The translations under genes were made by a program, and so were the position numbers. Positions 6,861-26,774 of a stretch of 64,000 nt of DNA are shown here, piece by piece. The stretch comes from Candidatus Nomurabacteria bacterium (GTDB lineage: Bacteria > Patescibacteriota > Saccharimonadia > Saccharimonadales > JAGQNJ01): contig CP060231.1 in the NCBI GenBank assembly GCA_023898625.1, positions 413,986-477,985 of the forward strand, read 5' to 3'. Within the stretch, counting starts at the first letter, position 1, and every line of letters starts with the position of its first letter. The notes below the pieces were generated by a model. That model saw nothing but the letters and a program-made list of their open reading frames with translations. It did no database searches and had not been told where the DNA came from.

Positions 6861-9800
6861 TGGAATATGGGGTCTGTTACATCTGCTGAGAGTATGTTTG
6901 GTGATCCAGTGGAATATTACATCACTATGCTAGAGGCTATGGCTGGTGTTCCTGCCAGTGAATGGGATAATAGCGTAGCAGAAAGCGTAATGGGCCCAGG
7001 TGCAACGGTAGATGATTTGTTTGCATACCTAAGCTCAATAGTTGGGGCTGAAGTAACCCAAGCTAACTACACAGACTTTATGAACATAGAAATGGGTCTC
7101 TCCACCGTCAACTACGATGCCACCCTAACAGGCTGGTCTTCTCAGTCTCTTCAGAGTGGAGTAACCTTTGGTGCTGGAGATAGTAATTACTGTAACTCCG
7201 AAACCCAAAGACAAAATATTATCACTAACTACTCATGGACTATTAATGATAGTGGTAAAGACTGTAATTTTGAACTAAGTGCTCCCCGTAATTTGACAGC
7301 AGAAGTTACAAGTAGCACATCAATACTTCTAGCATGGCAGGCACCAGAGTATGATGGAGGTTCGTCAATTTCAGATTATACAATTCAGTATAAACCTACC
7401 AATGACAGTGCATGGATAGTACTTAATGACGGCATTAGCACAAATCTTAATGCGACAGTAACTAGTTTGAGTCCTGGACAAAGTTATGATTTTCGTGTGT
7501 CAGCAGTAAACTCAAATGGAGCTGGACCTTATGCTGAAACAACTAAATTGTTAAGTATGCAAACCTTGCCTGGGGTTCCAGAAGGATTTTCTGCTACTGC
7601 CTACAATTATGTTGACGATGAAGTTAACACAACAATATATGCATTGCCAAGTTTGTCCTGGCAAGAACCACAACAGGGTAGCCCAATAGACTATTACACG
7701 TTACAGTTTAGGAAGAGTGGGGAGTCTGCTTGGCGTAATTATGTAGATGCCTCTATCGTCACTACAAATATAAACTTTGATTTTAGTTTTAGTAGTATGG
7801 ATTTGCAGGATGTTAACAATAATACTCAAGAACAAATTGATTTATTAAATGAACTAAATCAAGCAATGATTCTTGGAGAAAGTTATGAATTTCGTGTTGC
7901 CGCAAATAATAACTTAGGACAGGGTTTATTTACTGATCCAATTAGCTTTGTTCCATCATTCACAACGAATGATTGCAGTGTTCTTCATGACCTACTTCAG
8001 ATGTATGGTATAAAAGATCGAGATTCAGATGTGGCGCTGAATGCTCATTTTGTTTTATTACAAAACATAGACTGTTCTGATACGATTAATTGGAATAGTG
8101 GCGATGGATGGAGCCCTATCCCTAATGACCCGCAGTACGTATTTAATGGTGAATTTGATGGAAATGACCATTCGATTAACAATATGTATATCAATAATAG
8201 TACAGATATTGGTGTAGGTATGTTTGGTATTTTAAAAGATACAAATATAACTAATCTTTCGCTAATTAATAGTAACGTTAGTGGCCATATATATTATGAC
8301 TCGGATGAAGGTGGTTCTGGATCGTATGTTGGCATTCTTTCAGGAATTGCAAGTTCAGATACTACGATTACGAACGTTACAGTTAGCGGTTCTGTATATT
8401 CCGAATGGTCTGCGGGTGGGGTTGTTGGGTATAGTGATAGCGATAATGCAGGCAACATAATGATTAATTGGGTAACATCGCACGCCAATGTAAGTGCTGC
8501 GAAAGGAACTTTTTCGGGTGGACCAGTTGGTGGTCTTGTTGGAATAAACTACGGCGGTGATAGAAGTCAAGGTCAATTTACGCAAGGTAAATTTGTTGTT
8601 GATACACAAGGAAATATTTACACCATTAATTCATCAAATTATAACAATAAAGTACTAAAATTTGATACATCGGGAAATCTAATAGACTCTTGGGGTAATG
8701 AAGGAAACGATCTTGATGAGTTTAATCAGTTTGCCCCAAATGATATTTCAATTGATGCACAGAATAACATATATTTCTCAGGGGTAAAAAAATTCAATAG
8801 TAATGGAGGATTTGAAGGTCAATATGGCAATTACTTAGGTTATGTATATGTTGATAATAGCGACAATATTTATGTGGTTGGTGAAACTGATTATTATAAT
8901 GGAACACCACAAGCTATTCATAAAATCAATGCAGAGGGCACTTTGTTAGCATCTTTCTTTACCAAAGAAGAAGTTGTGGGCAGAGAAAATGCAAGCCCCA
9001 GTGATATAGTCGTTGGTCAAAACGGGGATATTTACGTAGCAGAGAGATATAGCAATCAAGTACGTCGATATGATAGTAATGGTATATATATTGGAAGTAT
9101 TGAATTGGTTAATGGGAACAATGAGTTAATGATTACTAACGATAATCATTTATATGCACTAGGCAACGGCAGTATTAGCCAATATGATTTGCTCGGTAAT
9201 CTTACATTGTCTATACCTTCATATTCATTGCCATCATATATGACAGCGGATGAAGATAGTAATATATACGTATCAAACAATTCAACACATGAATTGACAA
9301 AATATTCTCCTAGTGGGATTGAAGTTGGTTCGCTTGATGCTGGTTATAAAGCAGATGAAATTTACGCCCCTGGAAAGATTGTTATCCATGGAGAATATAT
9401 GTATGTCGCTTCAGATTACGGGAAAGCAATAAAAATATTCAACAAAGATACCTTTTCATATATAAATAAGATTGATGGGAAAAAAGACGATAATCCTTAC
9501 AAGACATTAATAGTAGATAGTTCTGCTAACGGGCAATTAAATGCTAAATATTCAGGTGGATTAGTGGGAGCTAATACCGGTAATGCAATAGAAGATGTAT
9601 TTGAAGTGCCAGGCTTGGAATTACAACATACAAATGCTTCAGTTACAATTAATGATGCTTGTACTTTTGCTGGGGGGTTGATCGGACTCACCTTGGTCGG
9701 AACGCGTATTGAGGATTCTAGCTCAGGAGGTAATGTGTCGTGTAAGGGCGGAGATTTTCTTGATAGTTCAACATCAGTCGATATTTCCACAGGTGGATTG

Positions 9801-12800
9801 GTTGGAAGACAGCATAATTCTTCTTTGTTAAATATTGCAAATTCATCATTTAATGGGAATGTCTCCTCAAGAGCGTATAATTATTCTGATAATTTATCAT
9901 ACTCGGGTGGACTAGTTGGATATTCATACTCAACAGGAATGGAATATATCGATAGGTGGTCTCTTTTAATTCCCTCGAACTATTTAGGAATTTCGGGGGT
10001 ATCAATTACAAATAGCTCCGCGAATGCTACTGTTCATACTGAATTAGCTAGATTTGGTGGCGGAGCAGGTGGCTTAGTAGGAAGGGCAACTGTTATCAAT
10101 GTGGTTGGCTCAAGTGCTCACGGTAATACTCTAGTCGATCAAATATATGCAGATAATCTAACAGGTCCAACGTATAGCGCGGGTGGTGTAGTTGGAGAAT
10201 CAGGAATATCTTCGATAACCTCATCTGATAGCGACAACCAGGTCACTGTTAATGCTACCGGAATGCAAGATCAGTCATACGCTATGCTATATGCAGGAGG
10301 TTATATTGGCCTTGGTGATATATATCAACATTTCAATCAATTAAATAGGGATGGAGATATTGTGATACATGGACGTAATGAATTACCGACAGATAATAAT
10401 TCTTATGGCATAATAGCGGCAGGTGGCTTAGCTGGTCTTGCCATGAGTTACAAAGAGTCAACTATCGAAAACAGTACGTCTTTGAGCGATATATCTATAG
10501 ATGGAGTCAGAGGTTCCACAAATATAAATATGAGTAAGTTTATTGGCGGTTTTGTGGGTGGCTTAGTTGGATTTGCTCAGAGTGACACAAACTATGTAAT
10601 TAAGAATAGTTCTACTAGTGGTAATCTTGTGGGTACTGGCAACTCATCAAGTACACCAACCGATTTCATGCATTATTTAACCTCAGCAGGAGGTTTAATA
10701 GGACAATATCTTGGCTCAACTCTTAATCATAATACTACTATCACAGGTAGTTTGAATATTCAAAATTCGCAAAGTAGCTCTAATGTATCTGGAAAATCTC
10801 TTCCTATGAGCAGAGCGTATGCGAGCTATAGTGGAGGGGTTGGAGGTTTGGTCGGATCATTTACCTCAAGTGGGGGCAGTATTGAGCGTTCATTTTCACA
10901 AGGCGATGTCAACGGCACAAACGTAGGTGGCTTAGTCGGAAAGGCTGCATCTTATGGTGAGAGCTCGTTTTCAATCAATGATACGTACTCCACAAGTAAC
11001 GTTGTTAGTTCTAATTTGATAGTCGATGCAGAAATTGATGATCAGTTAAAAAAGATTGGTTTTAGTGGATCTGCGGGAGGTTTGGTTGGGACAATAGCTG
11101 GCGTAGACATCAATAGTTCTTATGCATCTGGAAGGGTTGAGGCGTCTGGATCAGTTGATATGATTGGTCTTGGTGTGAATAATGTTATGGTTAGTCAATC
11201 ATCAGATACTTCATTATCAAGAGTAATTTATGCTTTTAATAGCGTTGCTGGGGGGCTCGTAGGACGTTATATTCAGAATACACCAGTCGCCCAAGACGCA
11301 TTATCTGGTAGTTATATAACAAAAAGTTTCGCGACCAGTAAACTAGTCAGCCCAAATGGTAGTGAGCAAGGTGCTATTATTGGCGAATATTTTGATTACG
11401 CAACAATAGCTAGTGTGATTAATCCTGAGTTTAATATTGATAATTTAGATATTGTTAGTACACAGGATTCGTTAAGTCATGTATATCATGATCGATTTGT
11501 AACAGATTCAAATATTTGTGGTAATGAGATCTATATAACGAGCTATACGCCAGCCATTCCTGAAAATAATATACCTGAAATTGTGACTTCTGACTTTCGT
11601 GATTCTTTTAGCTGTCACCCCATCAACACCGACGGCTCTCAACCTAACTACTTCAAGAACAATTCTACCAACCCCCCCTTGAATCAATGGAACTTCTCTA
11701 CTATATGGAAGACTAACTGTACTAACTATCCAGACTTTGTAGGCTCAACCAACTGTAATCCATCCAACCCTCCAGAAAACCCAGGTAACGGCAATCCTCC
11801 AACCACCCCTACAACTCCAACCACCCCTACAACCCCAACCAATCCTCCAAAGACTCCTAGTACCACTAAACCACCTACTCCCACAGAATCAGACACCCCT
11901 TCATCTTCATCCAATAATCAGTACTACTCCAACCCTCAATCTACAGCACTACCAGCTCCCCTATCTAAAGTAGTCAAAGGTTCCTTCATGCAATCTCTAG
12001 TGAACTATACTGCTAACAATATACCTAAACCCGTAGCTAAAGCCATTCCATACAGCCTACTCATACTTCTACTAGCTCTCTCAGCCCTCTATGGCTATTC
12101 TAGCTATCTAGAAAACAAAAGAAGACAAGCTCTCCAAGCTCTCATCACTCGCTTTAAATCTCTACTATCGGCTAGAGCTACCTTCCTACGTATTACCTCC
12201 CACTACATCAATACACCGATCACTAAGATCCAAGGAACCATAGAACTACTAGCTATGGGTACTACTTCAACCACAACTGCTAATACCACAACAGCAAGTA
12301 CCAACACCACAAACAATAACTCAAGTACTAACAATAACTCTACAGGCTCTAATACCAACCCTCCTACTAATACCAGCTCTACTCCTCCAAGTAACACTAC
12401 TAGCTCTACCAGTAATCCAGGCACTACCTACACCCCTAACTCTAGCTCTCAGTCTGGTTCAGCTTCCGTAAACAGCTCTAGCAATCAGGCTAGTACCACC
12501 AGCTCCATCAGTTCTACTCCTAGCTCCCCTAATAGCATTAGTATACCTATTAATACTAACTCTAGCTCTCAGTCTGGTTCAGCTTCCGTGTTCACCTCAA
12601 CCCTAGCCACTACAGCTACCACTCTAACTATCCCAGAAGCCTCTATCGTAGCCTCTAAGTCAGCCATCAAGAGTCTCACTAACCATGCCAATGAACTACT
12701 AGATGAAGGACAATCCCTCACCGGAAGACAACAAGCTAACATCAGAAACCTAGAACAAAGAAAAGGACTTAGCTTCCTAACCCATCCTTTCTTCTGGCTC

Positions 12801-13721
12801 CCAGTAGTAGTTATCTCTACCTTAGTAGTACTACTCAACATCATCTTCATTCAAGCTGAACGCTATACCCCTACAGCTATTACTATTGCTTCTCAACTTA
12901 TCCTAGGCTTCGTTGGTGTTATAGCTTTAGGTGTCAGCTACTACTTCTACCGTTCCTTCCAGTCCCAAAGACAAGCTCTACTAACCGAACAAGAAATAGA
13001 ACAAGAGTTCAATGCTCGCCAAGCTAACTTCATAGCTGATGCCTACAACAAGCTCAACGATGACATCATAATCCTAGAAGGTGTCAGCCAAGACCTAGCT
13101 AAGTATCCTAAAGTCCGTAACTTCAACCAAGGCCTCAATGAACTAAAAGACATAGTCTCCCAACTAGAAAAACTCAGCAACCTATCTAAGCATGTCCCAG
13201 GACTGCAATACCACACCAACCTAAGCAGTACTATATCTACTACCCTAACTAACCTCAGATCCCTAGCTGACCAACAGAACATCACTATAACTACCAACAA
13301 CATCAAACCCAACCAAAACGTCAACATAGAAGCTAATGCCCTAACCCATCTACTGTCAGCTCCACTCAAGAACGCCATCTCAGCTAGTACTGCTGGCTCT
13401 AATATAGAACTATCCCAATCTATCCACAAAGCTAACAAATCTAGCCAGATAAATAAACCTAACACAGTAACCACTAACCCTAACAATACCAACCTACCTA
13501 TCCAAATAACTATTACCGATCATGGCAAAGGCATACCCCCAGAACAACTAAACAATATCTTTACCCCATTCAACTCAGCCCATAGCCTAGAACACTTCAC
13601 TGATACCGGACTAGGACTAGACCTCTACCTATGCAAAGTAATTACAGAACAATACAACGCCAACCTAACCATCACCAGCCAACCAGGAGAAGGCACAACA
13701 GTGATAGTGGGGATGGGGTGA
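6588..13721 (+). CDS. Giant surface repeat protein, C-terminal part: DUF285 repeats, FN3 domains, NHL-type beta-propeller repeats, GLUG (GGLVG) motif repeats, Pro/Thr linker, TM helix, histidine-kinase H-box, S/T/N-rich low-complexity insert, two TM helices, C-terminal HATPase_c
   Basis: Continuous 2377-codon ORF. FN3-like segments (LSAPRNLTAEVTSSTSILLAWQAPEYDGGSSISDYTIQYKP). NHL-like repeats (QGNIYTINSSNYNNKVLKFDTSGNLIDSWG). More than 15 GGLVG/GGVVG GLUG motifs. PTTPTTPTTPTTPTNPP linker. H-box LRITSHYINTPITKIQGTIELL. HATPase_c N/G1/F/G2 boxes (LTHLLSAPLKNAI; ITITDHGKGIPPEQLNNIFTPF; DTGLGLDLYLCKVI...GEGTTVIV). Confidence 0.8.
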   Translation: MDMSGMFSSFNSDLSSWNTSNVTDMSGMFSSASSFNSDLSSWNTSNVTDMSGMFSSASNFNSDLSSWDTSNVTDMSWMFGGASSFDQSLASWNMGSVTSAESMFGDPVEYYITMLEAMAGVPASEWDNSVAESVMGPGATVDDLFAYLSSIVGAEVTQANYTDFMNIEMGLSTVNYDATLTGWSSQSLQSGVTFGAGDSNYCNSETQRQNIITNYSWTINDSGKDCNFELSAPRNLTAEVTSSTSILLAWQAPEYDGGSSISDYTIQYKPTNDSAWIVLNDGISTNLNATVTSLSPGQSYDFRVSAVNSNGAGPYAETTKLLSMQTLPGVPEGFSATAYNYVDDEVNTTIYALPSLSWQEPQQGSPIDYYTLQFRKSGESAWRNYVDASIVTTNINFDFSFSSMDLQDVNNNTQEQIDLLNELNQAMILGESYEFRVAANNNLGQGLFTDPISFVPSFTTNDCSVLHDLLQMYGIKDRDSDVALNAHFVLLQNIDCSDTINWNSGDGWSPIPNDPQYVFNGEFDGNDHSINNMYINNSTDIGVGMFGILKDTNITNLSLINSNVSGHIYYDSDEGGSGSYVGILSGIASSDTTITNVTVSGSVYSEWSAGGVVGYSDSDNAGNIMINWVTSHANVSAAKGTFSGGPVGGLVGINYGGDRSQGQFTQGKFVVDTQGNIYTINSSNYNNKVLKFDTSGNLIDSWGNEGNDLDEFNQFAPNDISIDAQNNIYFSGVKKFNSNGGFEGQYGNYLGYVYVDNSDNIYVVGETDYYNGTPQAIHKINAEGTLLASFFTKEEVVGRENASPSDIVVGQNGDIYVAERYSNQVRRYDSNGIYIGSIELVNGNNELMITNDNHLYALGNGSISQYDLLGNLTLSIPSYSLPSYMTADEDSNIYVSNNSTHELTKYSPSGIEVGSLDAGYKADEIYAPGKIVIHGEYMYVASDYGKAIKIFNKDTFSYINKIDGKKDDNPYKTLIVDSSANGQLNAKYSGGLVGANTGNAIEDVFEVPGLELQHTNASVTINDACTFAGGLIGLTLVGTRIEDSSSGGNVSCKGGDFLDSSTSVDISTGGLVGRQHNSSLLNIANSSFNGNVSSRAYNYSDNLSYSGGLVGYSYSTGMEYIDRWSLLIPSNYLGISGVSITNSSANATVHTELARFGGGAGGLVGRATVINVVGSSAHGNTLVDQIYADNLTGPTYSAGGVVGESGISSITSSDSDNQVTVNATGMQDQSYAMLYAGGYIGLGDIYQHFNQLNRDGDIVIHGRNELPTDNNSYGIIAAGGLAGLAMSYKESTIENSTSLSDISIDGVRGSTNINMSKFIGGFVGGLVGFAQSDTNYVIKNSSTSGNLVGTGNSSSTPTDFMHYLTSAGGLIGQYLGSTLNHNTTITGSLNIQNSQSSSNVSGKSLPMSRAYASYSGGVGGLVGSFTSSGGSIERSFSQGDVNGTNVGGLVGKAASYGESSFSINDTYSTSNVVSSNLIVDAEIDDQLKKIGFSGSAGGLVGTIAGVDINSSYASGRVEASGSVDMIGLGVNNVMVSQSSDTSLSRVIYAFNSVAGGLVGRYIQNTPVAQDALSGSYITKSFATSKLVSPNGSEQGAIIGEYFDYATIASVINPEFNIDNLDIVSTQDSLSHVYHDRFVTDSNICGNEIYITSYTPAIPENNIPEIVTSDFRDSFSCHPINTDGSQPNYFKNNSTNPPLNQWNFSTIWKTNCTNYPDFVGSTNCNPSNPPENPGNGNPPTTPTTPTTPTTPTNPPKTPSTTKPPTPTESDTPSSSSNNQYYSNPQSTALPAPLSKVVKGSFMQSLVNYTANNIPKPVAKAIPYSLLILLLALSALYGYSSYLENKRRQALQALITRFKSLLSARATFLRITSHYINTPITKIQGTIELLAMGTTSTTTANTTTASTNTTNNNSSTNNNSTGSNTNPPTNTSSTPPSNTTSSTSNPGTTYTPNSSSQSGSASVNSSSNQASTTSSISSTPSSPNSISIPINTNSSSQSGSASVFTSTLATTATTLTIPEASIVASKSAIKSLTNHANELLDEGQSLTGRQQANIRNLEQRKGLSFLTHPFFWLPVVVISTLVVLLNIIFIQAERYTPTAITIASQLILGFVGVIALGVSYYFYRSFQSQRQALLTEQEIEQEFNARQANFIADAYNKLNDDIIILEGVSQDLAKYPKVRNFNQGLNELKDIVSQLEKLSNLSKHVPGLQYHTNLSSTISTTLTNLRSLADQQNITITTNNIKPNQNVNIEANALTHLLSAPLKNAISASTAGSNIELSQSIHKANKSSQINKPNTVTTNPNNTNLPIQITITDHGKGIPPEQLNNIFTPFNSAHSLEHFTDTGLGLDLYLCKVITEQYNANLTITSQPGEGTTVIVGMG

Positions 13722-13807: not shown

Positions 13808-14278
13808 ATGGATATTTCATCAGGTAGCAATGAAAAAGTTAAAGAATCAAAATCAGCATCACCTTCAAAGAAGAAGCTGACACCAAAGCAAAGAAAGATA
13901 ATCTTCTCAATAATTGTTGTTTTGTTATTAGTTTTTGCTGGCATAGGAATTTATAAGTATGCTTACGATAAAGGATATGATAAGGGCATGGAAGCGGGTA
14001 AGAAGGCTAGCGCTTCAAAGAGTCCAACTGATTTATTTAGCAATCTCCAAAATCCATTTAAAACACTTACTGGTTCTGTAGAAAAATTAGAAGGTGAAAA
14101 ACTTACGATTACGACAAGTAAAGGTGAAGTAAAAACACTTAAAATAACTGACAAGACCAAGATAACCAAAAAGACAGAGACGTTGAACAAGGATTCTTTA
14201 ACTAAGGGTGCTAAGGTTACTATCTTTACTACGGGCGAAGGTGATAGTTTGAGTGCTACTAGAATAGTAGTAAGATAG
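13808..14278 (+). CDS. Hypothetical membrane-anchored protein (156 aa)
   Basis: Strong RBS AAGGAGG upstream; N-terminal Lys-rich tail plus TM (IIFSIIVVLLLVFAGIGIY); Lys/Thr-rich beta-type C-terminal region. Confidence 0.55.
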   Translation: MDISSGSNEKVKESKSASPSKKKLTPKQRKIIFSIIVVLLLVFAGIGIYKYAYDKGYDKGMEAGKKASASKSPTDLFSNLQNPFKTLTGSVEKLEGEKLTITTSKGEVKTLKITDKTKITKKTETLNKDSLTKGAKVTIFTTGEGDSLSATRIVVR

Positions 14279-14324
14279 ACGGTGTTTTCCGTGCTGTTGT
14301 CGGAGAAAATTATTATATTTACAA

Positions 14325-14975
14325 ATGAAGAAGAAATCATCTAGGCTTTCAAAAAAATATAAGATTATTATATTTACGATAATGGTTTTATTTATTGTTG
14401 GTATTTTTATTGTTACGAAAAGACATAAGAATACTGAAAAACCAAACGCACCAGAGACCGTTACATATTCTACCGATACCCCAGATGAATCTAAGGCTAA
14501 TGCTGATACGTATAGTTGGAAGGGTGCCGAAAACGATCCAAAGAAATTGCGTATTCAGTCGATTGGTGTCGATGCCTATGTACAACGTATGGGGGTTGAT
14601 CAGAATAATAAGATTGCTGTACCAAACAATATTCACCTCACAGGATGGTTTACTAATAGTCAACAACCTGGACAGGATGGTCTTTCAATAATCGCTGGTC
14701 ACGTTACTGGGAAAAAAGGCGACGGGGTATTTAAGCATTTGGGTGATATGAAAGCAGGGGATTTATTTGAGGTAGAAACCGGCAGTGGCGCAATCAAACA
14801 CTACAAAGTGATTGAAGTGAAACAGATGAAAGAATCTGAGTCAGCAGATTTTTTATTTTCTCAAAAACCTAACACTAAGAGCCAGCTTAATTTGATAACT
14901 TGTGGTGGTAGATTTGACTCATCAGCCCACATGTATGATGATAGGGTTATTGTGGTTGGTGAATTGCAAGAGTGA
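14325..14975 (+). CDS. Sortase (class E/F-like cysteine transpeptidase)
   Basis: N-terminal TM anchor, catalytic His in SIIAGHV, TLxTC-type Cys motif LNLITCGG, and a conserved Arg in YDDRVIVVG. Confidence 0.85.
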   Translation: MKKKSSRLSKKYKIIIFTIMVLFIVGIFIVTKRHKNTEKPNAPETVTYSTDTPDESKANADTYSWKGAENDPKKLRIQSIGVDAYVQRMGVDQNNKIAVPNNIHLTGWFTNSQQPGQDGLSIIAGHVTGKKGDGVFKHLGDMKAGDLFEVETGSGAIKHYKVIEVKQMKESESADFLFSQKPNTKSQLNLITCGGRFDSSAHMYDDRVIVVGELQE

Positions 14976-15064
14976 TTTACTGCAAGTTACTTGATGTAGC
15001 CTATAATTTTTATTATACTAAAGCTTATATAAGTATTTATCGAAAAACAGGGTAACAAACTAAT

Positions 15065-15721
15065 ATGCCAAGACTACCAATACCAGGGTCAGATAGAGGT
15101 CAGTGGGGCGATGTGCTCAATGAATACTTGAGGGTTTCCCATAATGAAGACGGTACCCTGAAGGGATCGTTAATTTCAGGTCCTGGCGCTACCGGTGCCA
15201 CCGGCCCACAAGGCCCAGCTGGTTCACAAGGCGCAACGGGTGCTACTGGCGCTGGTTCTACCGGTGCCACCGGCGCCACTGGACCGCAAGGTGTAGCTGG
15301 TTCTCAAGGCGCCACCGGAGCTGGATCTACAGGTGCCACCGGGCCACAAGGAATAGCTGGTGTAGCTGGAGGTGCTGGTGCTACCGGCGCCACTGGACCG
15401 CAAGGTGTAGCTGGTTCTCAAGGCGCCACCGGAGCTACTGGCGCTGGCGTTACGGGAGCCACCGGACCACAAGGGCCAGCTGGTTCTGCTGGTACTCAAG
15501 GTGCAACGGGCGCTACCGGAGCTGGTGCTACAGGTGCCACCGGACCACAAGGAATAGCTGGTGTAGCTGGAGGTGCTGGCGCCACCGGCGCTACTGGCCC
15601 GCAAGGCGTAGCCGGTAATTCGGGTGAAGGTGTTATTGTAGTGGCTTCAAACTGGGTTACAACTGATGGATTGCCTTCAGGAACTCCAACAGGAACAATT
15701 ATTCTTAGGAGAAAGCCATAA
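15065..15721 (+). CDS. Collagen-like triple-helix repeat protein (Gly-X-Y), no signal peptide
   Basis: About 45 consecutive G-X-Y triplets ([16 protein letters not shown]...), GC-rich relative to its flanks; N-terminal region without a hydrophobic leader. Confidence 0.8.
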
Positions 15722-16177
15722 ATGGGGTTGGTTCTCGGGAAAGATGGTAAAACTCGATCTGTTGAAATTAACACAGGCTCAGCTGTGTCTCAAATTTCTA
15801 CTCTTTATGTCGGGTTGCTACAGTCTGCCCCAGCAAATATGGACGGTATGGATTTAGCGACTTTAATATCTTCTGGTCAAGGAAATGAGTTTACGATAGG
15901 TGCTTCGTTTTATACTGGTAGAAAATCAATAACAGTAGGTTCTATTAGTGCCGATGAAAATGGTGCAATTTGCTATAACAATAACGGTAGTCCTGTTGAG
16001 TGGACAAATACAACCGGCTCTGACGTTAATGTGCTAGCTTTTTTTATTACGGACGTTGCTAGTGGTGGATCTGGCAAAGTTTTATGGGTTGGAACACCAG
16101 ACGCTGGCACTGCAACAATCGGCAACACATATAAGGCAAGTATTTCTGCAAACGATTTAATGCTCAAGGTAGACTAA
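15722..16177 (+). CDS. Hypothetical protein (151 aa), translationally coupled to the collagen-like gene
   Basis: ATG directly abuts the TAA of the upstream gene (TAAATG); no signal peptide; no known domain. Confidence 0.55.
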   Translation: MGLVLGKDGKTRSVEINTGSAVSQISTLYVGLLQSAPANMDGMDLATLISSGQGNEFTIGASFYTGRKSITVGSISADENGAICYNNNGSPVEWTNTTGSDVNVLAFFITDVASGGSGKVLWVGTPDAGTATIGNTYKASISANDLMLKVD

Positions 16178-18970
16178 GTGGCAACTAACGTATCAGTATC
16201 AGTTGCTCAGTCTACTCATGATGGGTTCCAAGCATGGAATCAGCGAGGAAATGCAAGTGGCGTAGACTTTACTACGGCTCTAAAGTATCCAATTATTGGG
16301 CCACACTATGATGATTCTTTATTTCTTGCAACATTCTATATTTTTAAGTTTGATAATGTTCCACAGGGGTCTCAAATTAGTTCATGCACATTAAGCCTAA
16401 GAACAAACAACGCATATACCGGTGGATTAACAAATCACATTTATGTCGCGGTTGAAAATAATTTGGATGTTAATGGCTCAGGAGCGGTGGTCAATGGAAC
16501 TTTAGGCTCAATGCCGTGGCAGAGGCTGGGTCGACAGACTGCCTCAACAACACTGTTCGGTAACAGATGTGGTCCAACTCACAATAAGGCTGGTTTTGAT
16601 CTATCGAATTATGGTGCTCATGTGCGTGATTCTAGCGCACTAATATATAAGGCGTTTTGCACAAATCAAAGTAGTGGTTCGGCGCTTGGTAGAGATTTGA
16701 GTGCGGGGAGTTGGGTGGATACTGAAAATTTTGCATCTGCCATTCAGCCATTAGTTAATGATTCTGGATGGAATAGTACTACTCAGTATGTCATGGTCTA
16801 TTTATTCGCTGATGATGATTCTGGTACAACTTATAATGTCGGTAATCTAGGAAGCTTTACTTGGGATAACGGTACGGTTGGTGCGACTGGATATGGCAAT
16901 GGTAACGGCCAAAACTACTTTTACGACCAAAGTGCTGGTTTATATGCGCCAAAGATTAATTTAACATACACATCTGCGTCACTAAAGGCAGTTAATTCGG
17001 GCTCTTTAAGTTCAGGCAATGTTCGATTAAGACCAGCATTATGTTTGGGGAGTGCAAGCGGAACTAGGGTAGAGCTTTTATTAGGCAATGGAGTAATACC
17101 AAAAATGACAGCTGGTGCGGGAGATAAATTATTCACCTGGATGGATTCTTATAATCCGAATGGTACGGCTTGGGGTGCTTCAGGAGGGAATCCTCCTGGT
17201 GCCAGAATAAAATGGGATGGTATTCGGCCAGGTCGTGTAGATGGAACATCAATATTCTTAGAAGATTATCCAGGGGATACTCCAAGGTTAAGTTGGCAGA
17301 TTGGTGAATATCAATCTGAATATTCTAGCAGAAATGTATATTCATTACGTTTTTATCATCGTTACGAGGGTAATTCTGGTACTGTAACAGATAATGGGGT
17401 TGTAGAAATTCTCAATGGAGGAGCAGGACAATTCCGGATTGAGCACAAGCATTATGATGGATCAACCCTTATGCAATTAAGAATTGCTTGGTCTGGCAAC
17501 GCAACCGCTTGGACTAGTTATCAATTTACTCCACCTGCTGGCAATGGATACTACAGATATGAAATACAGGTTGATTCAACTCAAACCCCAAAGGTCAGAC
17601 TACGCGTATATTTAAATGATAACACCACGCCAATCGAAACATTAACTGCAAGTCCACCAAATGTTGAGATGGATGAAGTTCGTTTTGGAGGATTCGATAC
17701 TGATACTACGCCACTAATGAGCTCTAGGCTTTCAGACGTTGAAATCTGGACTGATTATTTGCTTAACAGGAGGTATCCAGACTCTCTGACTAATACGGTT
17801 GGAACACCATATGAGCCACAGAAATGGGCATGGTTTGAATATGATGGTACTACATCAAAGCAATTGGATGATCTAGGTGAAGTTAGCTCAATTGATGGTG
17901 GTGGTGGCAGTGTTGTTTTGGATTCCTCAAAAGCACTGACTTATGAAGATATAAAGGCGGAGCTTTGGACGGGCGCGACACCCAACTATACCCTGTATTC
18001 AGATTTAAGTTATGGCGCAGGAAATTATCGTAAACTTGATCTATACATACCTACAGGCACGCCTCCTGCAAATGGTTGGCCAGTAATATTATGGGCGCAT
18101 GGAGGCTACTGGTCATCTGGAAACAAGACCACAATCCCTAATCAGTTTGTCCGAAACTGTTGCCTTAAAGGCTATGCGGTTGCGTCACTAGAGTATGTGT
18201 TGCACACAGTGATAACATCAGGTGCAGGTAGTTACCCCGCCTGGGATCCAAATACTGCCTCTGGGCGTTATCCAACTATGATATTGAACTACAAAGAAGC
18301 AACATATTGGCTAAAAACTAAATCTTCAACAAATAGCGGAGGAGATGGTACGTATAATATTGATGCAGGTAAGTTCATTGCATCTGGTCATTCAGCTGGA
18401 GGATACAATGCACTCGGTGCTGTAGTAAGTAAAGGCTTGACTAATGATGGTGGTGGACGTGATCTTACTTTAGCCGGAAACGTGGGCTCTTTTGGTTGCC
18501 CAAACGTAGCAGATCCAACATATCTGGGCGCATATATTGTGGCTGGACCAATCAATTTAAATTATCTTAAATCTTGGGATCCTACACATCCAGACTGGCC
18601 ATATTTAGATGCTGGGGCAGGAAGTATCTATGCGACATGTCGCGTGTTTCGGGGTGAGAATTACAATAATGGTGTTGGGGATGTTAACAACTGTGGCATT
18701 GACGACATGGTCTTACTTAATCCTTCTGTCATACCAAGCATTGCATATGCTTGGGCCCCCTCTGATAATGTCGTTGTCAGTAATCCGCGGACTCCTTATT
18801 CTCAAGAGAAAAGGCTTTCTGATGTAATGACAACCGTGGCGGGCTCGCTACCTCCAACTACTACTTATGAAGGATATGAGGTCTATGACGCCTTGCATCA
18901 CACGATACACGACGTAGATTTTGATTTTCAACATTTTTTCAGATGGCTAGAATCATTACCAGGACTATAG
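16178..18970 (+). CDS. Large protein with LamG/concanavalin-like jelly-roll region and C-terminal alpha/beta-hydrolase (esterase/lipase) domain
   Basis: GTG start abutting the upstream stop. C-terminal LDLYIPTG..GWPVILWAHGGYWSSGNK (oxyanion HGG motif) and nucleophile elbow GHSAGG. Mid-region resembles a lectin/LamG jelly roll. No N-terminal signal peptide. Confidence 0.7.
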   Translation: MATNVSVSVAQSTHDGFQAWNQRGNASGVDFTTALKYPIIGPHYDDSLFLATFYIFKFDNVPQGSQISSCTLSLRTNNAYTGGLTNHIYVAVENNLDVNGSGAVVNGTLGSMPWQRLGRQTASTTLFGNRCGPTHNKAGFDLSNYGAHVRDSSALIYKAFCTNQSSGSALGRDLSAGSWVDTENFASAIQPLVNDSGWNSTTQYVMVYLFADDDSGTTYNVGNLGSFTWDNGTVGATGYGNGNGQNYFYDQSAGLYAPKINLTYTSASLKAVNSGSLSSGNVRLRPALCLGSASGTRVELLLGNGVIPKMTAGAGDKLFTWMDSYNPNGTAWGASGGNPPGARIKWDGIRPGRVDGTSIFLEDYPGDTPRLSWQIGEYQSEYSSRNVYSLRFYHRYEGNSGTVTDNGVVEILNGGAGQFRIEHKHYDGSTLMQLRIAWSGNATAWTSYQFTPPAGNGYYRYEIQVDSTQTPKVRLRVYLNDNTTPIETLTASPPNVEMDEVRFGGFDTDTTPLMSSRLSDVEIWTDYLLNRRYPDSLTNTVGTPYEPQKWAWFEYDGTTSKQLDDLGEVSSIDGGGGSVVLDSSKALTYEDIKAELWTGATPNYTLYSDLSYGAGNYRKLDLYIPTGTPPANGWPVILWAHGGYWSSGNKTTIPNQFVRNCCLKGYAVASLEYVLHTVITSGAGSYPAWDPNTASGRYPTMILNYKEATYWLKTKSSTNSGGDGTYNIDAGKFIASGHSAGGYNALGAVVSKGLTNDGGGRDLTLAGNVGSFGCPNVADPTYLGAYIVAGPINLNYLKSWDPTHPDWPYLDAGAGSIYATCRVFRGENYNNGVGDVNNCGIDDMVLLNPSVIPSIAYAWAPSDNVVVSNPRTPYSQEKRLSDVMTTVAGSLPPTTTYEGYEVYDALHHTIHDVDFDFQHFFRWLESLPGL

Positions 18971-19023
18971 GTGTGATTCTTTTACAACAGCTTGCTTTCC
19001 GCAGTAAGTGCTAGTATTTAATT

Positions 19024-20187
19024 ATGAAAAAGAGTAGCCAAATGACATTTCATGTAGTTTCGCTTCCACACACTCAAACGACAATGGAATATGAAGCGTG
19101 TGCCTATACATCTAAAACCAGAAAGTTCTGTAATATGATGAAATCACTAGGGCATAAAGTGTATCTATACGCATCTGAGGAGAATGAGGCAAATGTTGAC
19201 GAGTTGATTACGATTGCGCCAAAAGATGATCAGCAAAAATGGTTCGGCGACAACGACTTTAAGCAAAATTTTTTCAACTTAACCTGGAATATTGAGGATG
19301 AGCATTGGCAGAATACTAACAGACGTGCAATCAGCCAAATAAAAAAACGAATTAATAAAAAGGATTTTATTTGCATTATTGGTGGCGTTTGTCAAAAGCA
19401 AATTGCCGATGCATTCCCAGCGCACATGTCTGTTGAGTATGGTATTGGTTACGAGGGGGTTTTTGCACCATTTAGGGTATACGAATCGTATTCTCATATG
19501 CACTATGTGCAAGGAAAATTAAATGATGACAACGGAAGGTTCTACGACGCAGTCATCCCAAACTACTTCGAGCCAGAAAACTTTCAGTTCAAGAATAAAA
19601 AAGAAGATTATTTTTTGTTTCTAGGGCGATTTATACCTCGAAAAGGTGTAGAGATTGCTGTAGAAGTTACAAGAAGATTAGGTAAACGACTGGTGTTGGC
19701 AGGGCAAGGAGTTAGTAAGGTAGAAGGAAATACTATTTATGGCGATGACTTTTCGGTTAGTGGGGATCATATTTTGCATGTCGGGCATGCAAATGTTGCT
19801 CAGCGGTCGGCTTTGCTTCGTAACGCAACCGCAACTTTTATGGCGACGACCTATATTGAACCTTTTGGTGGGGTGGCAATCGAAAGCCTGCTTTGTGGAA
19901 CCCCAGTAATAGCTACGGATTTTGGGGCATTTGCCGAGAATATCCAGCATGGAGTTCACGGCTATAGGTTTAGGACAATTGGTGAGGCAGTATGGGGTGC
20001 TAAGAATGTCCACAAGTTAAATAACAAAGTAATCCATGAGTATGCCGTAGAAAACTTTAGCGTAGAACGGGTTAAGTATCTATACCAAGCATATTTTGAG
20101 CAACTGCAAACATTGTGGGAAGAAGGATTCTATTCAAACTGGGATAAAGGTGTCGCTAAATATCAAAGATATAAAAAGTTCTCGTAG
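19024..20187 (+). CDS. Glycosyltransferase family 4 (GT-B, GT1 superfamily)
   Basis: LFLGRFIPRKGVEIAVEV and the E-X7-E motif EPFGGVAIESLLCGTPVIATDFGAFAE. Confidence 0.8.
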   Translation: MKKSSQMTFHVVSLPHTQTTMEYEACAYTSKTRKFCNMMKSLGHKVYLYASEENEANVDELITIAPKDDQQKWFGDNDFKQNFFNLTWNIEDEHWQNTNRRAISQIKKRINKKDFICIIGGVCQKQIADAFPAHMSVEYGIGYEGVFAPFRVYESYSHMHYVQGKLNDDNGRFYDAVIPNYFEPENFQFKNKKEDYFLFLGRFIPRKGVEIAVEVTRRLGKRLVLAGQGVSKVEGNTIYGDDFSVSGDHILHVGHANVAQRSALLRNATATFMATTYIEPFGGVAIESLLCGTPVIATDFGAFAENIQHGVHGYRFRTIGEAVWGAKNVHKLNNKVIHEYAVENFSVERVKYLYQAYFEQLQTLWEEGFYSNWDKGVAKYQRYKKFS

Positions 20188-20222: not shown

Positions 20223-22070
20223 TTACCTCACCCCAGTATTCGGACTCCCCACAGCTAACGTAGCTAAGCCTACAGGGTCTTTGATAATGCCAGTTGTTTT
20301 GTCTAAGTCTAAATCACCATTGTCAGTAATAGTATAGGTTAGTAGTAGAGCATGCTGGTTATTATGAGTAGTTTCAGTAATAGTAGCATTGTCTAATGTA
20401 GTATAGCCCTTAGTGCTAGGATCATACTTTTTAGCTATTACCTGATTTGGTTTTAAGTCGGTAACAAATAGTAACGACACTGTGTTGTCTGTAGTAGATG
20501 TACTAAAGCTAAAGTCTATTAAGCCTAATGGATAATTATAGCCAGAGTCTTGAACTGCTAGTGATGATTCTTTAACAGCCACAAAGTTAGATAGTGTAGT
20601 ACTAGTCGGAAGATCTAGAACTACAGTCTTACTATCTTCTGCATTAGGTATAGAGTTACTACCCCCTGTTTTATAGGTATAGATAATCTCATTAGCTCCA
20701 GTAGTAGATAAGGCTAGAGTAGTAGGAGGAGTAGATACTAGACTATAGCCAGAGATATTAGGAGCAGAAGGCAAATCTACTGTATCTCCTACCTTGTAGT
20801 AAGCATTAATATCTTTAGAAGGATTATCCTTGAGTAGATAGTTAGTTAGTGTAGTACTAGAACCAGTGTCATAACCAGTGATAGTAGATGATGGCAATAA
20901 ATCATTACCAGACCCATCCTGATACTTAACTACAGCACGGGAGGGGTTGATGAGAGTCATAAGAAGAATATCGCTAGTATCACCATTGCCATTAGAATCT
21001 GGCATGCCAAAGTCTGCCTCTGTCATTGCTAGATCAGCCAGTCCTAAAATTGTAGCTTGGCTTGGGTCGATATAAACGTTGCAAGTCTTCGTCCCATCTA
21101 TCAAAGCTTGAAAAACTGACGGGCTATATCCCGAATTTGCATAATCTATATATGTAGGAGTATCCGGAACTGTCTGCCCTCCGATTGATGTACTGCTCAT
21201 TGTTGTAACAGAACTAGGGATAAAGACCTCACTTAATTGATCGGCGTTAAATACAAAAGAGCCCAAACTTGTTACTGAGTTAGGTATGTTTATGCTTGTG
21301 AGCTGATTAAACATGAATGCATGGTCACCAATACTTGTTACTGAGTTAGGTATGGTTACGCTAGTGAGTTGATTGTCCTGGAACGCAGCGTTGCCAATAC
21401 TTGTTACTGAGTTAGGTATAGTTACGCTGGTGAGTTGATTGTCCTGGAACGCAGCGTTGCCAATACTTGTTACTGAGTTAGGTATAGTTACGCTGGTGAG
21501 TTGATTATAAGCAAACAACCCTGTATTCATAGATGTCACCGAATTTGGTATTGTGACATTTGTGAGCAGATTGTTCTCAAACGAACTTTCACCCATATAT
21601 ATCACCGAATTGGGTATTGTCACGTTAGTTAGTTGGTTGGCATAAAAAGCAGAGTTGCCGATAGTAGTAACAGAACCAGGGATAGTTACGCTAGTTAGTT
21701 GCTCGTTGTCCATAGCATAGTCTCCTATCACGTTCACCGCTACACCACCAATAGTACTAGGTATATCTACAGCCTTAGGGCAAGCTGGATCACTTGGATT
21801 GTTGTTTTCGTGCTCGTAGTAACCTGTAATAGTATTAGTACCAGCATTAAAGTTAAAACAGCTATCCGGAGGAGTTATAGCATAGGCTTTATTAGTAGGT
21901 ATTAAGGCTAATGTAGTAGATAAAGCTAACACTAAACTAATAGCTATTAATGATGCAGAAACAGAAGCAGGCTTTAGATAAGCCATAAACTTATTAGTAC
22001 CCTCAATTGTTTTGTTATCTTTATAACAACCAAACATAGAAACACTAAACTTTTGCATTAACGACTTCAA
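20223..22070 (-). CDS. Surface protein with BspA-type leucine-rich repeats and conserved C-terminal domain ending ...DPVGLATLAVGSPNTGVR
   Basis: N-terminal TM/signal (VSASLIAISLVLALSTTLALI); more than 10 repeats of LTSVTIPNSVTSIGNAAFQDNQ (LRR_5/BspA type); C-terminal roughly 120 aa shared with the protein at 31333..32511. Confidence 0.8.
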   Translation of the reverse strand: MKSLMQKFSVSMFGCYKDNKTIEGTNKFMAYLKPASVSASLIAISLVLALSTTLALIPTNKAYAITPPDSCFNFNAGTNTITGYYEHENNNPSDPACPKAVDIPSTIGGVAVNVIGDYAMDNEQLTSVTIPGSVTTIGNSAFYANQLTNVTIPNSVIYMGESSFENNLLTNVTIPNSVTSMNTGLFAYNQLTSVTIPNSVTSIGNAAFQDNQLTSVTIPNSVTSIGNAAFQDNQLTSVTIPNSVTSIGDHAFMFNQLTSINIPNSVTSLGSFVFNADQLSEVFIPSSVTTMSSTSIGGQTVPDTPTYIDYANSGYSPSVFQALIDGTKTCNVYIDPSQATILGLADLAMTEADFGMPDSNGNGDTSDILLMTLINPSRAVVKYQDGSGNDLLPSSTITGYDTGSSTTLTNYLLKDNPSKDINAYYKVGDTVDLPSAPNISGYSLVSTPPTTLALSTTGANEIIYTYKTGGSNSIPNAEDSKTVVLDLPTSTTLSNFVAVKESSLAVQDSGYNYPLGLIDFSFSTSTTDNTVSLLFVTDLKPNQVIAKKYDPSTKGYTTLDNATITETTHNNQHALLLTYTITDNGDLDLDKTTGIIKDPVGLATLAVGSPNTGVR

Positions 22071-22676: not shown

Positions 22677-22752
22677 TGGTGGGGGTGGTTGGAATTGAAC
22701 CAACGACCAATCGGTTATGAGCCGACTGCTCTAACCACTGAGCTACACCCCC
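22677..22752 (-). tRNA. tRNA-Met (anticodon CAU), elongator type, CCA encoded
   Basis: Reverse complement folds as GGGGGTG-TA-GCTC-AGTGGTTA-GAGC-A-GTCGG-CTCATAA-CCGAT-TGGTC-GTTGG-TTCAATT-CCAAC-CACCCCC-A-CCA. Confidence 0.85.
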
Positions 22753-23277: not shown

Positions 23278-23428
23278 TACCTTAGAACACTATATGTAGA
23301 ATGTTGTCGCGAAGTATATAAACAATAACAAGACCAATGCAAAACGCAACAAAAAAACCAATAATTAAAGCATATAGAGTACTAAACCTAGAGTCCCGAT
23401 CATGCTTGTTCATGTATTTATCATACAA

Positions 23429-23482
23429 CAATAACAAAAAAGACCCATAAACTGGGTCACTTTTGTTGGTTGCGGGACCAGG
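23429..23482. repeat. 54-bp direct repeat copy 1 (duplicates the terminator hairpin plus the last 16 nt of tRNA-fMet); att-like scar
   Basis: caataacaaaaaagacccataaactgggtcacttttgttggttgcgggaccagg is identical to 23598..23650; includes CCTGGTCCCGCAACCA, the 3' end of the tRNA, in reverse complement. Confidence 0.85.
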
Positions 23483-23597
23483 GGCGGTCTCATTAATTCG
23501 ACCCATTTCCTCACATGCTCGATGCAAGCATCTGTGCTTGTTCGTCATGAGCGAACCTGTGGCAAATTGCGCATCCAGGTTCTCGTCTTTACTTTAC

Positions 23598-23650
23598 AAT
23601 AACAAAAAAGACCCATAAACTGGGTCACTTTTGTTGGTTGCGGGACCAGG
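23598..23650. repeat. 54-bp direct repeat copy 2 (overlaps the genuine tRNA-fMet 3' end and its terminator)
   Basis: Identical to 23429..23482. Confidence 0.85.
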
Positions 23651-23709
23651 ACTCGAACCTGGGACCTCGTGGTTATGAGCCACGCGAGCTGCCGCTGCTC
23701 CATCCCGCG
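23635..23709 (-). tRNA. Initiator tRNA-fMet (anticodon CAU)
   Basis: CGCGGGA-TG-GAGC-AGCGGCA-GCTC-G-CGTGG-CTCATAA-CCACG-AGGTC-CCAGG-TTCGAGT-CCTGG-TCCCGCA-A-CCA. The C1:A72 mismatch is characteristic of bacterial initiator tRNA. A terminator hairpin GACCCAGTTTATGGGTC+T6 lies immediately 3'. Confidence 0.85.
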
Positions 23710-26697: not shown

Positions 26698-26774
26698 GTC
26701 GGTGTAGCTCAGTTGGTTAGAGCGCAGGACTCATAAGCCTGAGGTCGTAGGTTCGATCCCCACCACCGACACCA
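26698..26774 (+). tRNA. tRNA with CAU anticodon (Met elongator or Ile2/lysidine type), 1.2 kb from tilS
   Basis: GTCGGTG-TA-GCTC-AGTTGGTTA-GAGC-G-CAGGA-CTCATAA-GCCTG-AGGTC-GTAGG-TTCGATC-CCCAC-CACCGAC-A-CCA. Canonical D and T loops and full acceptor stem, but one mismatch each in the anticodon and T stems. Confidence 0.65.

Follow-up and report, generated by a model that had tools for sequence, protein, structure and literature searches.

A probable phage-derived receptor-binding-fibre cassette in Saccharibacteria chromosomes

The subject of this analysis is a 64-kb stretch of a Saccharibacteria chromosome (contig CP060231.1; the whole stretch is called the window below) and, within it, the region 15065-20187, which encodes a collagen-like protein, a 151-aa Gp80-like protein, a 930-aa protein and a GT4 glycosyltransferase. 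We think it probable that these four genes form a receptor-binding-fibre cassette of phage origin that is resident in Saccharibacteria chromosomes, is inherited vertically and is maintained by selection. An earlier, sequence-only reading had pointed out that the first three genes are organised like a phage tail-fibre module and had offered two explanations, a domesticated fibre or a fragment of a prophage. Our evidence supports a stronger statement, namely that the trio is homologous to a phage tail-fibre module and not merely organised like one; the likeness extends to protein family, to fold and to the same gene order in myophage contigs. Strong purifying selection and vertical inheritance support the first of the two explanations, that of a domesticated fibre. 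Because public annotation of these genes of the window (USN95956-58) consists of the labels 'hypothetical protein', 'alpha/beta hydrolase' and 'glycosyltransferase', the module is invisible in the databases, and we found no description of this cassette in the literature searched.

Architecture and family membership of the four genes

Six co-directional open reading frames (ORFs), with the motifs that the sequence-only reading had ascribed to them, were confirmed against the ORF list and by a motif check (Table 1). The same holds for the start codons that abut the preceding stops, with no spacer at either internal junction of the fibre genes: ...AGGAGAAAGCCA TAA/ATG at 15719-15724 and TAA/GTG at 16175-16180. 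The collagen gene carries a Shine-Dalgarno-like AGGAG in its final codons, 9 nt ahead of the Gp80-like ATG, and 53 nt separate the esterase gene from the GT4 gene. In the window the three fibre genes (15065-18970) share one frame, in which two TAA codons are the sole interruptions. Programmed read-through was considered and rejected since the junctions in other loci overlap by 1 nt or are out of frame, which argues for translational coupling and not for recoding; the shared frame of the window looks like a coincidence. An operon defined by its promoter or terminator was also dropped, because the counts of such signals around the operon were no higher than in shuffled controls.

The collagen-like, 151-aa and 930-aa proteins had been described as lacking signal peptides, and a hydropathy scan agrees and extends this to GT4: the four cassette proteins are all without a hydrophobic segment (maximum hydropathy score, KD19, at most 1.27), a transmembrane segment, a sortase motif or another C-terminal sorting signal. 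Because each ORF was called from the earliest start codon that follows a stop, longer N-termini are excluded.

The 151-aa protein matches PF23140, the Gp80 family of podophage GP4 fibre I, at 28.8 bits against a cut-off of 27, over profile positions 16-127 of 128, and PF23140 matches are precomputed for most of its 35 homologues. Structure prediction, which had been proposed as a check on this gene, points to the same phage fibre-protein fold. The sole notable Protein Data Bank (PDB) match of the AlphaFold2 (AF2) model (pLDDT 82, built from 27 sequences) is 8jou_a, GP4 fibre I, with probability 1.00, template-modelling (TM) scores of 0.60/0.65 and 148 aligned columns; the Foldseek E value of 1.3e-3 is borderline, and the next match, at probability 0.08, is noise. 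By sequence and by predicted fold, then, the protein is assigned to the GP4 fibre-I family. A tblastn search with it against 50,697 phage records gave no match, and the Gp80 profile found no locus in IMG/VR. The gene is split in one of the related loci (L027, 9356-9981) into two overlapping frames covering profile positions 1-56 and 37-151, either through a frameshift or through an assembly error; this is the sole damaged cassette gene that we saw.

The collagen-like character of the shaft protein was confirmed, with 46 GXY triplets in five runs, and the protein matches PHROG tail-fibre families down to E 1e-26. It has a maximum KD19 of 0.73 and ends in ...ILRRKP. The same architecture of N-terminal anchor, GXY region and C-terminal tail is present in every Saccharibacteria locus, with a shaft length that ranges from 112 to 810 aa. 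Wide variation in stalk length is usual for fibre shafts.

Both ends of the shaft protein are of phage type. The N-terminal anchor, whose consensus in the cellular fibres is M(P/A)RLP.PG.D.G.WG..LN.(Y/F)L.V.H..DG(T/S), has a mean column identity of 76-78% among the cell copies and matches the N-termini of receptor-binding-type proteins of the Streptomyces phages BRock (gp186) and GiJojo (gp34) at 56-61% identity; in GiJojo gp34 the anchor is followed by a pectate-lyase-like beta-helix. It is also found on three IMG/VR phage contigs (L034-L036), including on a 1069-aa protein encoded after a tape-measure-like gene. A word-index profile search with the anchor returned 10 short fragments only, and the context of one of these was uninformative. 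The C-terminal tail, of about 32 residues (consensus G.G.IVV.S.W...DG.P.GTP.GT.ILRRKP), ends every fibre gene that lies directly upstream of a Gp80-like gene and is common to cell and phage copies. Pfam searches at E <= 10 gave nothing meaningful for either end. In two loci the esterase gene is followed immediately by a gene for another collagen-like protein, of 280 aa (L009, 12926-13768; L010, 5991-6632); this protein keeps the N-anchor, carries a different globular C-terminal domain (...TQILSKLSNNDFDTTW..., as in phage fibres) and has no RRKP tail, so that the anchor serves more than one type of fibre per cell.

The genes for the anchored proteins of BRock and GiJojo are found amid tRNA genes, a long way from the tail cluster (L017, 5791-6738; L018, 5956-7398), and each is followed by a small conserved gene that the GiJojo annotation calls a 'peptidase'. 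The deposited BRock coding sequence extends about 70 codons beyond the anchor methionine on the upstream side and there overlaps with a tRNA-Lys gene, which suggests that its start has been mis-called.

The 930-aa protein is modelled by AF2 as three domains (pLDDT 84). Its predicted esterase domain with HGG and GHSAGG motifs was borne out by the positions of both motifs and by a PF20434 match at aa 620-753 (40.2 bits against 26.8, aligned to profile positions 1-111 of 215). Both motifs, together with D863 and H907, are invariant in 22 homologues, and from their order and invariance D863 and H907 are the putative acid and histidine of the catalytic triad. A profile of this third domain (D3) matches carboxyl and acetyl-xylan esterases in the PDB, down to E 2e-11, and its closest PDB structures are the carbohydrate esterases 6mly, 6xyc and 6tkx (TM score to target 0.73). 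The proposed lectin/LamG-like region stands at the level of structure and not at that of Pfam: the head model matches many phage 'Concanavalin A-like lectin/LamG jellyroll' proteins in BFVD at a probability of about 1.0, whereas Pfam, even at E <= 10, detects no lectin or LamG domain in the first two domains (D1 and D2) and nothing else that is meaningful. Further matches among viral structures include a minor tail protein of an Arthrobacter phage and an esterase of a siphovirus.

Full-length homologues of the 930-aa protein number 23, and more distant relatives in IMG/VR consist of D2 and D3 only. D1 is rare, being present in only 22 cluster representatives among 1.84 billion proteins. We considered that D1 might be a generic docking domain for different heads and rejected this, as BD-FAE was found in every representative examined, including all nine of the further ones scanned; D1 therefore belongs to this enzyme family. 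A tblastn search with the esterase against the same 50,697 phage records gave two weak matches only.

The GT4 protein matches the phage glycosyltransferase family phrog_3408 over positions 2-359 of 363 (E 1.3e-82), and is 41.5% identical to a glycosyltransferase of cyanomyophage S-CAM7 and 38.7% identical to one of ACG-2014f. The S-CAM7 gene lies between baseplate hub and tail-fibre genes, with a 2OG-Fe(II) oxygenase gene two genes downstream. In one of the phage contigs described below (L002) a GT4 gene whose product is 39% identical to that of the window lies three genes downstream of the module, near fibre and sheath genes. In Saccharibacteria GT4 adjoins the cassette in at least 11 loci, usually on the upstream side; it is downstream only in the window and in its close relative L019.

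Table 1. Positions of the cassette genes, their parts and the two genes directly upstream (nucleotides of the window; residues where stated)
Feature	Position	Strand	Remarks
Transmembrane protein, 156 aa	13808-14278	+	one transmembrane segment, aa 31-49; KD19 2.92
Sortase	14325-14975	+	one transmembrane segment, aa 14-32; PF04203, 78 bits
Collagen-like fibre shaft, 218 aa	15065-15721	+	PF01391, 59 bits; PHROG tail-fibre families
N-terminal anchor, 33 aa	15065-15163	+	aa 1-33 of the shaft
GXY region	aa 44-189 of the shaft	+	46 triplets
C-terminal tail (putative docking tail)	15623-15718	+	aa 187-218 of the shaft; last codons carry the Shine-Dalgarno of the next gene
Gp80-like fibre subunit, 151 aa, predicted beta-sandwich	15722-16177	+	PF23140
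Fibre head, 930 aa, LamG/ConA-like and BD-FAE esterase	16178-18970	+	PF20434; AF2 model
D1, rare N-terminal domain	16178-16978	+	aa 1-267 of the head; no Pfam match
D2, all-beta sandwich	aa 284-548 of the head	+	AF2 model
D3, BD-FAE alpha/beta-hydrolase esterase	17978-18967	+	aa 601-930 of the head; PF20434
HGG oxyanion motif	18098-18106	+	aa 641-643
GHSAGG nucleophile elbow	18386-18403	+	aa 737-742; Ser739
Asp863	18764-18766	+	invariant
His907	18896-18898	+	invariant
GT4 glycosyltransferase	19024-20187	+	PF00534 (Glycos_transf_1), 64.8 bits; phrog_3408

Recurrence, inheritance and phage relatives

The settings of homologues were taken from public assemblies, GTDB genomes and JGI metagenomes, and the ORFs in them were mapped against the window genes. 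The collagen-like, Gp80-like and esterase genes occur in this order, tightly coupled, in at least 17 Saccharibacteria chromosomal loci. Recurring as it does in independent loci, the arrangement cannot be put down to chance. The metagenome scan contributed no more than seven additional loci. The close relatives all come from metagenome-assembled genomes (MAGs) of Saccharibacteria. Three settings can be distinguished and all are housekeeping contexts: (i) next to TatC/DivIC (the window, L008, L021, L022, L024-26 and L028); (ii) between pyruvate kinase-PGK-TIM on one side and a sigma-70 gene on the other (L005-7, L009-10); and (iii) with RmuC-VKOR-glycosidase-DUF520 upstream and PheS-PheT-DUF2207-ABC downstream (L020, L023, L027, L030, L040). 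Intact ORFs are kept in at least 17 loci at a mutual identity of 50-60%. One MAG, SRP170004_co1_322, contains two whole cassettes with TatC (contigs 20 and 25, L021 and L025) at about 94% protein identity and a synonymous divergence (dS) of about 0.9-1.4; this pair is more likely to represent two strains or species binned together than a duplication.

To estimate constraint we used ratios of non-synonymous to synonymous divergence (dN/dS) from close pairs, which give unsaturated estimates. Between the window and L019 (dS about 0.94) the ratio is 0.033 for the Gp80-like gene, 0.035 for the esterase, 0.045 for GT4 and 0.10 for the collagen gene. Between L022 and L024/L026 the cassette genes range from 0.012 to 0.045 and the adjacent TatC is at 0.07, so in this comparison the cassette is more constrained than its flanking housekeeping gene. 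Overall the cassette spans 0.01-0.10 at dS 0.6-1.4, with the Gp80-like gene at 0.01-0.04. Pairwise identity of the esterase also tracks that of TatC across the eight loci in which TatC is adjacent, with a Spearman coefficient of 0.98 calculated over pairs that are not independent. One pair, the window and L008, is discordant: identity is 76% for TatC and 83% for GT4 but only 60% for the esterase, a hint that the head was later replaced or has changed at a faster rate.

All chromosomal copies form one clade in a neighbour-joining tree. Outside it fall the phage-context copies L001, L002, L011 and P0023 (L046), and also P0019 (L047/L048), which consists of short high-GC contigs without phage marker genes. 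The simplest history is one old capture by an ancestor of this Saccharibacteria clade, followed by vertical descent and local rearrangements.

Phage relatives do exist, a point on which the sequence-only reading could have failed. Distant homologues of the 930-aa protein (36-45% identity) are encoded in phage contigs, where a Gp80-like gene and a long collagen fibre gene immediately precede them. Sheath and tube genes accompany the module in L001 (where the tube is of gp19 type) and in L002-4, and L001 adds T4 baseplate and SLT genes; L011 encodes Mtd_N and Thy1 together with two collagen proteins (1609 and 481 aa), and L046 a tape-measure-like protein of 1883 aa. The phage relatives of the cassette are known from metagenomes only. 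L011 contains in addition a second module (16060-19778), with a weakly Gp80-like 170-aa protein (E 0.005), a 151-aa ORF further on and then a 630-aa BD-FAE protein; judged from its gene content, this phage would thus carry two esterase-type receptor-binding proteins. A 765-aa protein of L011 has no relative in cultured phages, and a PHROG scan of the neighbours of the module in L002 gave one weak tail-fibre match only.

With regard to the source of the module, BRock/GiJojo-like Streptomyces myophages, the same phages that bear the N-anchor, have the sheaths most similar to those of L001 and L002 (34-35% identity, E about 1e-50). The next closest are those of Bacillus phage BCD7, for both contigs, and then of Gordonia phages, for L002. 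GC content is 0.48-0.65 in the out-group copies, 0.53 in the BRock/GiJojo regions and 0.37-0.50 in the Saccharibacteria loci. These observations fit an origin among myophages of Gram-positive bacteria, perhaps of actinobacteria. A search of the phage contigs for tRNA genes, as a hint to their hosts, found none.

A working model and its alternatives

Our working model of the fibre is as follows. The collagen-like protein would trimerise into a thin stalk, with its N-terminal 33 residues acting as an anchor of the type found on phage receptor-binding proteins and its C-terminal residues (about 32) as a docking peptide. The translationally coupled Gp80-like subunits may clamp this peptide, by analogy with the Fiber-1 dimers that sit on a rope in GP4. 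The 930-aa protein would be the distal head, in which the ConA/LamG-type jelly-roll is predicted to bind carbohydrate and the BD-FAE serine esterase to deacylate a cell-surface polysaccharide, with O-acetyl as the most likely group removed. The probable task of GT4 is to glycosylate the fibre or to make a cognate glycan. By means of the fibre the cell, finally, would recognise a glycan on the surface of a bacterium and modify it, and we infer surface decoration or an interaction with a host surface as the role of the locus.

All cultivated Saccharibacteria are epibionts of Actinobacteria (PMC10633639, PMC12206443), and the host envelope is for that reason the obvious candidate target. The most plausible target is the actinobacterial host of the epibiont; its own surface or that of a competitor is also possible. 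A more specific version of the model is that the fibre was captured from BRock-like myophages that infect the epibiont's own actinobacterial hosts, stalk, Gp80-like subunit, LamG/esterase head and fibre glycosyltransferase all coming from that lineage, and that it finds, binds and locally de-acylates the host envelope. We put this forward tentatively, as a conjecture of rather low probability. If it were true, epibiont host range would depend in part on the cassette, and epibiont and phage would be rivals for one receptor.

Several points weigh against a resident, surface-acting fibre and are best considered together. The lack of a signal peptide, transmembrane segment or sorting motif leaves a trimeric fibre with no evident path to the surface. 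A conserved N-anchor of phage type implies a docking partner, and none was found: for the proteins encoded next to anchor-bearing receptor-binding proteins in phages, neither the window nor 16 related Saccharibacteria loci yielded a homologue. The esters on which BD-FAE relatives act are varied, and the activity of the head on carbohydrate esters is a prediction. In the pyruvate kinase/PGK setting no GT4 gene occurs within 10 kb of the cassette. The choice of target cell is a guess; the GC content of the phage relatives is 0.48-0.65, against 0.37-0.50 in the Saccharibacteria loci. Lastly, the scan for phage genes spans 64 kb of a 0.94-Mb genome.

Some of these points would be accommodated if the cassette supplied fibres for a tail-like particle or tube encoded elsewhere, such as a tailocin, a gene transfer agent (GTA), an extracellular contractile injection system (eCIS)-type device or another envelope-spanning tube. 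The N-anchor would then dock on a baseplate-like partner, and release by lysis or together with the machine would explain the missing signal peptides. The conservation of the anchor, which is the same as that on phage receptor-binding proteins, and the lack of secretion signals are both in keeping with this idea, and dispersed fibre loci are known for GTAs. As a lead only, cryo-electron tomography of the Saccharibacterium M. amalyticus has revealed an unidentified lance-like tube that measures about 9 nm across and has a barbed tip (PMC11880426). Nevertheless we consider such a particle unlikely: sheath, tube and baseplate genes are absent both from the window and from up to 10 kb on either side of the related loci (at least 17), homologues of the phage proteins that neighbour the anchored receptor-binding proteins are missing from the window and the 16 loci mentioned above, and the genomes are small (about 0.9 Mb). 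We know of no tail-like cluster reported for these genomes.

An anti-phage role can take two forms. The fibre could destroy or mask a receptor by deacetylating the cell's own envelope glycan, or it could be a decoy that co-assembles onto phage progeny through the shared N-anchor and spoils them. The closest non-cellular relatives of the cassette are phage receptor-binding modules and, if those phages infect Saccharibacteria, their target would be the Saccharibacterial surface; a cytoplasmic location would suit the decoy. CPR (candidate phyla radiation) bacteria rarely have CRISPR (PMC6509639). Against this, no PADLOC defence model is matched, a decoy would need neither an invariant catalytic triad nor a conserved GT4, and the receptor-destroying form would still need export. 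Defence genes are usually patchy in distribution and fast in turnover. The cassette, unlike such genes, diverges in step with TatC at dN/dS 0.02-0.05, and on balance a defensive function strikes us as improbable.

A further alternative is that the cassette is the inert leftover of an old prophage, or of a recent phage insertion, and has no function for the cell. The genes are phage-derived, the GC content of the cassette (0.439) is slightly above that of its flanks (0.40), and the frameshift in the Gp80 gene of L027 could be taken as a sign of decay. We regard an inert leftover as very improbable, as it is contradicted by the selection analysis: dN/dS is 0.01-0.05 at dS about 0.9, tighter than for TatC, the ORFs have stayed intact across at least 17 loci of only 50-60% mutual identity, and their divergence is congruent with TatC. 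The earlier remark that no other phage genes lie nearby also withstood the check that had been asked for, in that the window contains no capsid, portal, terminase or integrase gene, and we found no att-like or direct repeats flanking the cassette. The prophage-fragment explanation, in the sense of a decaying remnant, is accordingly not supported.

The sequence-only reading had grouped the cassette with the transmembrane protein and the sortase directly upstream, and here we differ. Apart from the window, the one locus where these two genes adjoin the cassette is L019, a 94%-identical relative, and this makes them neighbours and not conserved parts; L040 retains a homologue of the transmembrane protein about 5 kb upstream of its cassette. 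That the gene encodes a sortase is borne out by its Pfam domain, and of the sortase classes F scores best, though at 120 bits the match to NF033748 (NCBIfam) is below the curated class-F cut-off of 166. That the whole is an ordinary sortase-dependent surface-decoration locus, with the collagen-like protein or the esterase anchored in the wall like the streptococcal Scl or Legionella Lcl adhesins, is contradicted and in our view scarcely credible, for although the sortase and transmembrane protein lie directly upstream, surface-protein genes (the DUF285 giant and BspA-LRR) flank the cassette in this genome and weak NCBIfam matches to Scl/Lcl collagen regions exist, those matches score 50-63 bits against cut-offs of 325-500 and reflect GXY repeats only, membership of Scl1, Scl2 or Lcl being thereby denied, the cassette proteins have no signal peptide, LPXTG-like motif or C-terminal hydrophobic tail, the sortase adjacency is as limited as stated, and the window holds two better substrate candidates.

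These candidates are two otherwise unrelated surface-type proteins, a 615-aa BspA-type leucine-rich-repeat (LRR) protein (20223-22070, minus strand) and a 392-aa NHL-repeat protein (31333-32511, plus strand), which share the C-terminal sequence ...DPVGLATLAVGSPNTG(VR/L)* after a short hydrophobic stretch. The shared ...LAVGSPNTG end may be a sorting signal for the sortases at 14325-14975 and 46263-46931, and its carriers are likely to be better sortase substrates than any cassette protein.

The remainder of the window is that of an ordinary CPR chromosome, with Dus, DivIC, TatC, FtsH, MurJ, LepA, HrcA-GrpE-DnaK-DnaJ, RuvABC, ComEC and PilM; its annotated ORFs are housekeeping or surface-protein genes, and several small ORFs have no family match. 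A 970-aa DUF285/PKD protein (3672-6584, plus strand) precedes a giant ORF of 2377 aa (6588-13721, plus strand), which has DUF285-type and beta-propeller-like repeats, low-complexity stretches rich in Thr, Pro, Ser and Asn, and transmembrane segments. The C-terminus of the giant ORF resembles a histidine-kinase ATPase domain (...GLGLDLYLCKVI...GEGTTVIVGMG), and the GC skew around 12-14 kb, which is strongly negative, stems from its low-complexity part. Three tRNA-Met genes lie within 4 kb (22677-22752, 23635-23709 and 26698-26774). A perfect 55-nt direct repeat (23428-23482 and 23596-23650, 168 nt apart) overlaps with its second copy the end of the tRNA-Met gene at 23635-23709 (minus strand); the pair could be a small duplication or an old integration scar. 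A transposase fragment (rve-type integrase core) at 29658-30041 is followed by frame-shifted NHL-repeat pieces (30400-31336) upstream of the intact NHL gene. This region has the highest GC content of the window (0.49) and a negative GC skew, and looks like a disrupted or decaying paralogue.

Comparison with known systems

The closest structural parallel to the 151-aa protein is gp80 of GP4. In that phage Fiber-1 dimers are strung on an extended 'rope' protein, and the Fiber-1 fold also forms the whiskers of myophage Bas63 (PMC12609058). The two share a family (PF23140) and, by prediction, a fold, and in both a small beta-sandwich subunit is encoded beside an elongated partner; the rope suggests a role for the conserved C-terminal tail of our collagen-like protein. 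They differ in sequence (only about 14% identity) and in partner, which is a collagen triple-helix protein here and a rope-bearing Ig-like adaptor in GP4; in addition, the subunit here is followed by an enzymatic head of 930 aa, and the window copy resides in a cell chromosome. GP4 is also a podophage, whereas the phage relatives of the cassette are myophage-like. With collagen-like phage fibres and the receptor-binding-type proteins of BRock-like myophages the cassette shares the GXY stalk and the N-anchor; BRock and GiJojo differ in being without Gp80-like and esterase genes.

For the head, the appropriate comparison is with deacetylating tailspikes and fibres (coliphage G7C gp63.1; Pectobacterium phages PP99 and Possum), which are receptor-binding proteins whose enzymatic domain is an esterase and not a depolymerase. 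The G7C gp63.1 tailspike is an O-antigen deacetylase essential for infection, and esterases of its type act on acetylated surface polysaccharide (PMC10743462). By analogy our head is likely to share their working principle. The esterase families are unlike, in that the domain of G7C gp63.1 is of SGNH type and that of the head is a BD-FAE/HSL-like alpha/beta hydrolase. The deacetylating tailspikes are, in addition, virion parts of lytic phages of Gram-negative bacteria.

Among cellular proteins, Scl1/2, Lcl and BclA resemble the cassette in combining a GXY triple-helix stalk with a globular partner, and BclA is likewise without a signal peptide and is glycosylated by dedicated glycosyltransferases. 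The cassette differs from this group in lacking a signal peptide, LPXTG and a spore context, in scores that fall far short of the family cut-offs and in termini of phage type.

For the ultrasmall epibionts of the CPR (Patescibacteria), the candidates for host recognition and attachment studied so far are mainly type IV pili (PMC12206443, PMC10633639). The cassette is a concrete and genetically manipulable addition to these candidates: a complete phage-type fibre with an enzymatic head, constrained more than a neighbouring housekeeping gene, in genomes that shed nearly all non-essentials. If the fibre is exported, it also poses the puzzle of how a signal-less collagen trimer leaves the cell and to what a phage-type anchor docks.

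There is precedent for cells keeping phage structural modules, in the form of tailocins, GTAs, eCIS and the Mtd-like proteins of CPR bacteria that are linked to diversity-generating retroelements (DGRs). In all of these, as here, phage structural genes are kept under purifying selection for the cell's own use. Unlike the DGR-diversified Mtd-like systems, the cassette came with no DGR reverse transcriptase or template repeat that we noticed. Compared with tailocins, GTAs and eCIS, the fibre module alone is present here, with no tube, sheath, baseplate or capsid gene seen within the 64 kb of the window. It would be a clean case of a cell domesticating a phage receptor-binding module by itself, without the tail, and a stand-alone receptor-binding-fibre operon fixed in the reduced genome of an epibiont is a new variation on the theme of phage modules kept by cells.

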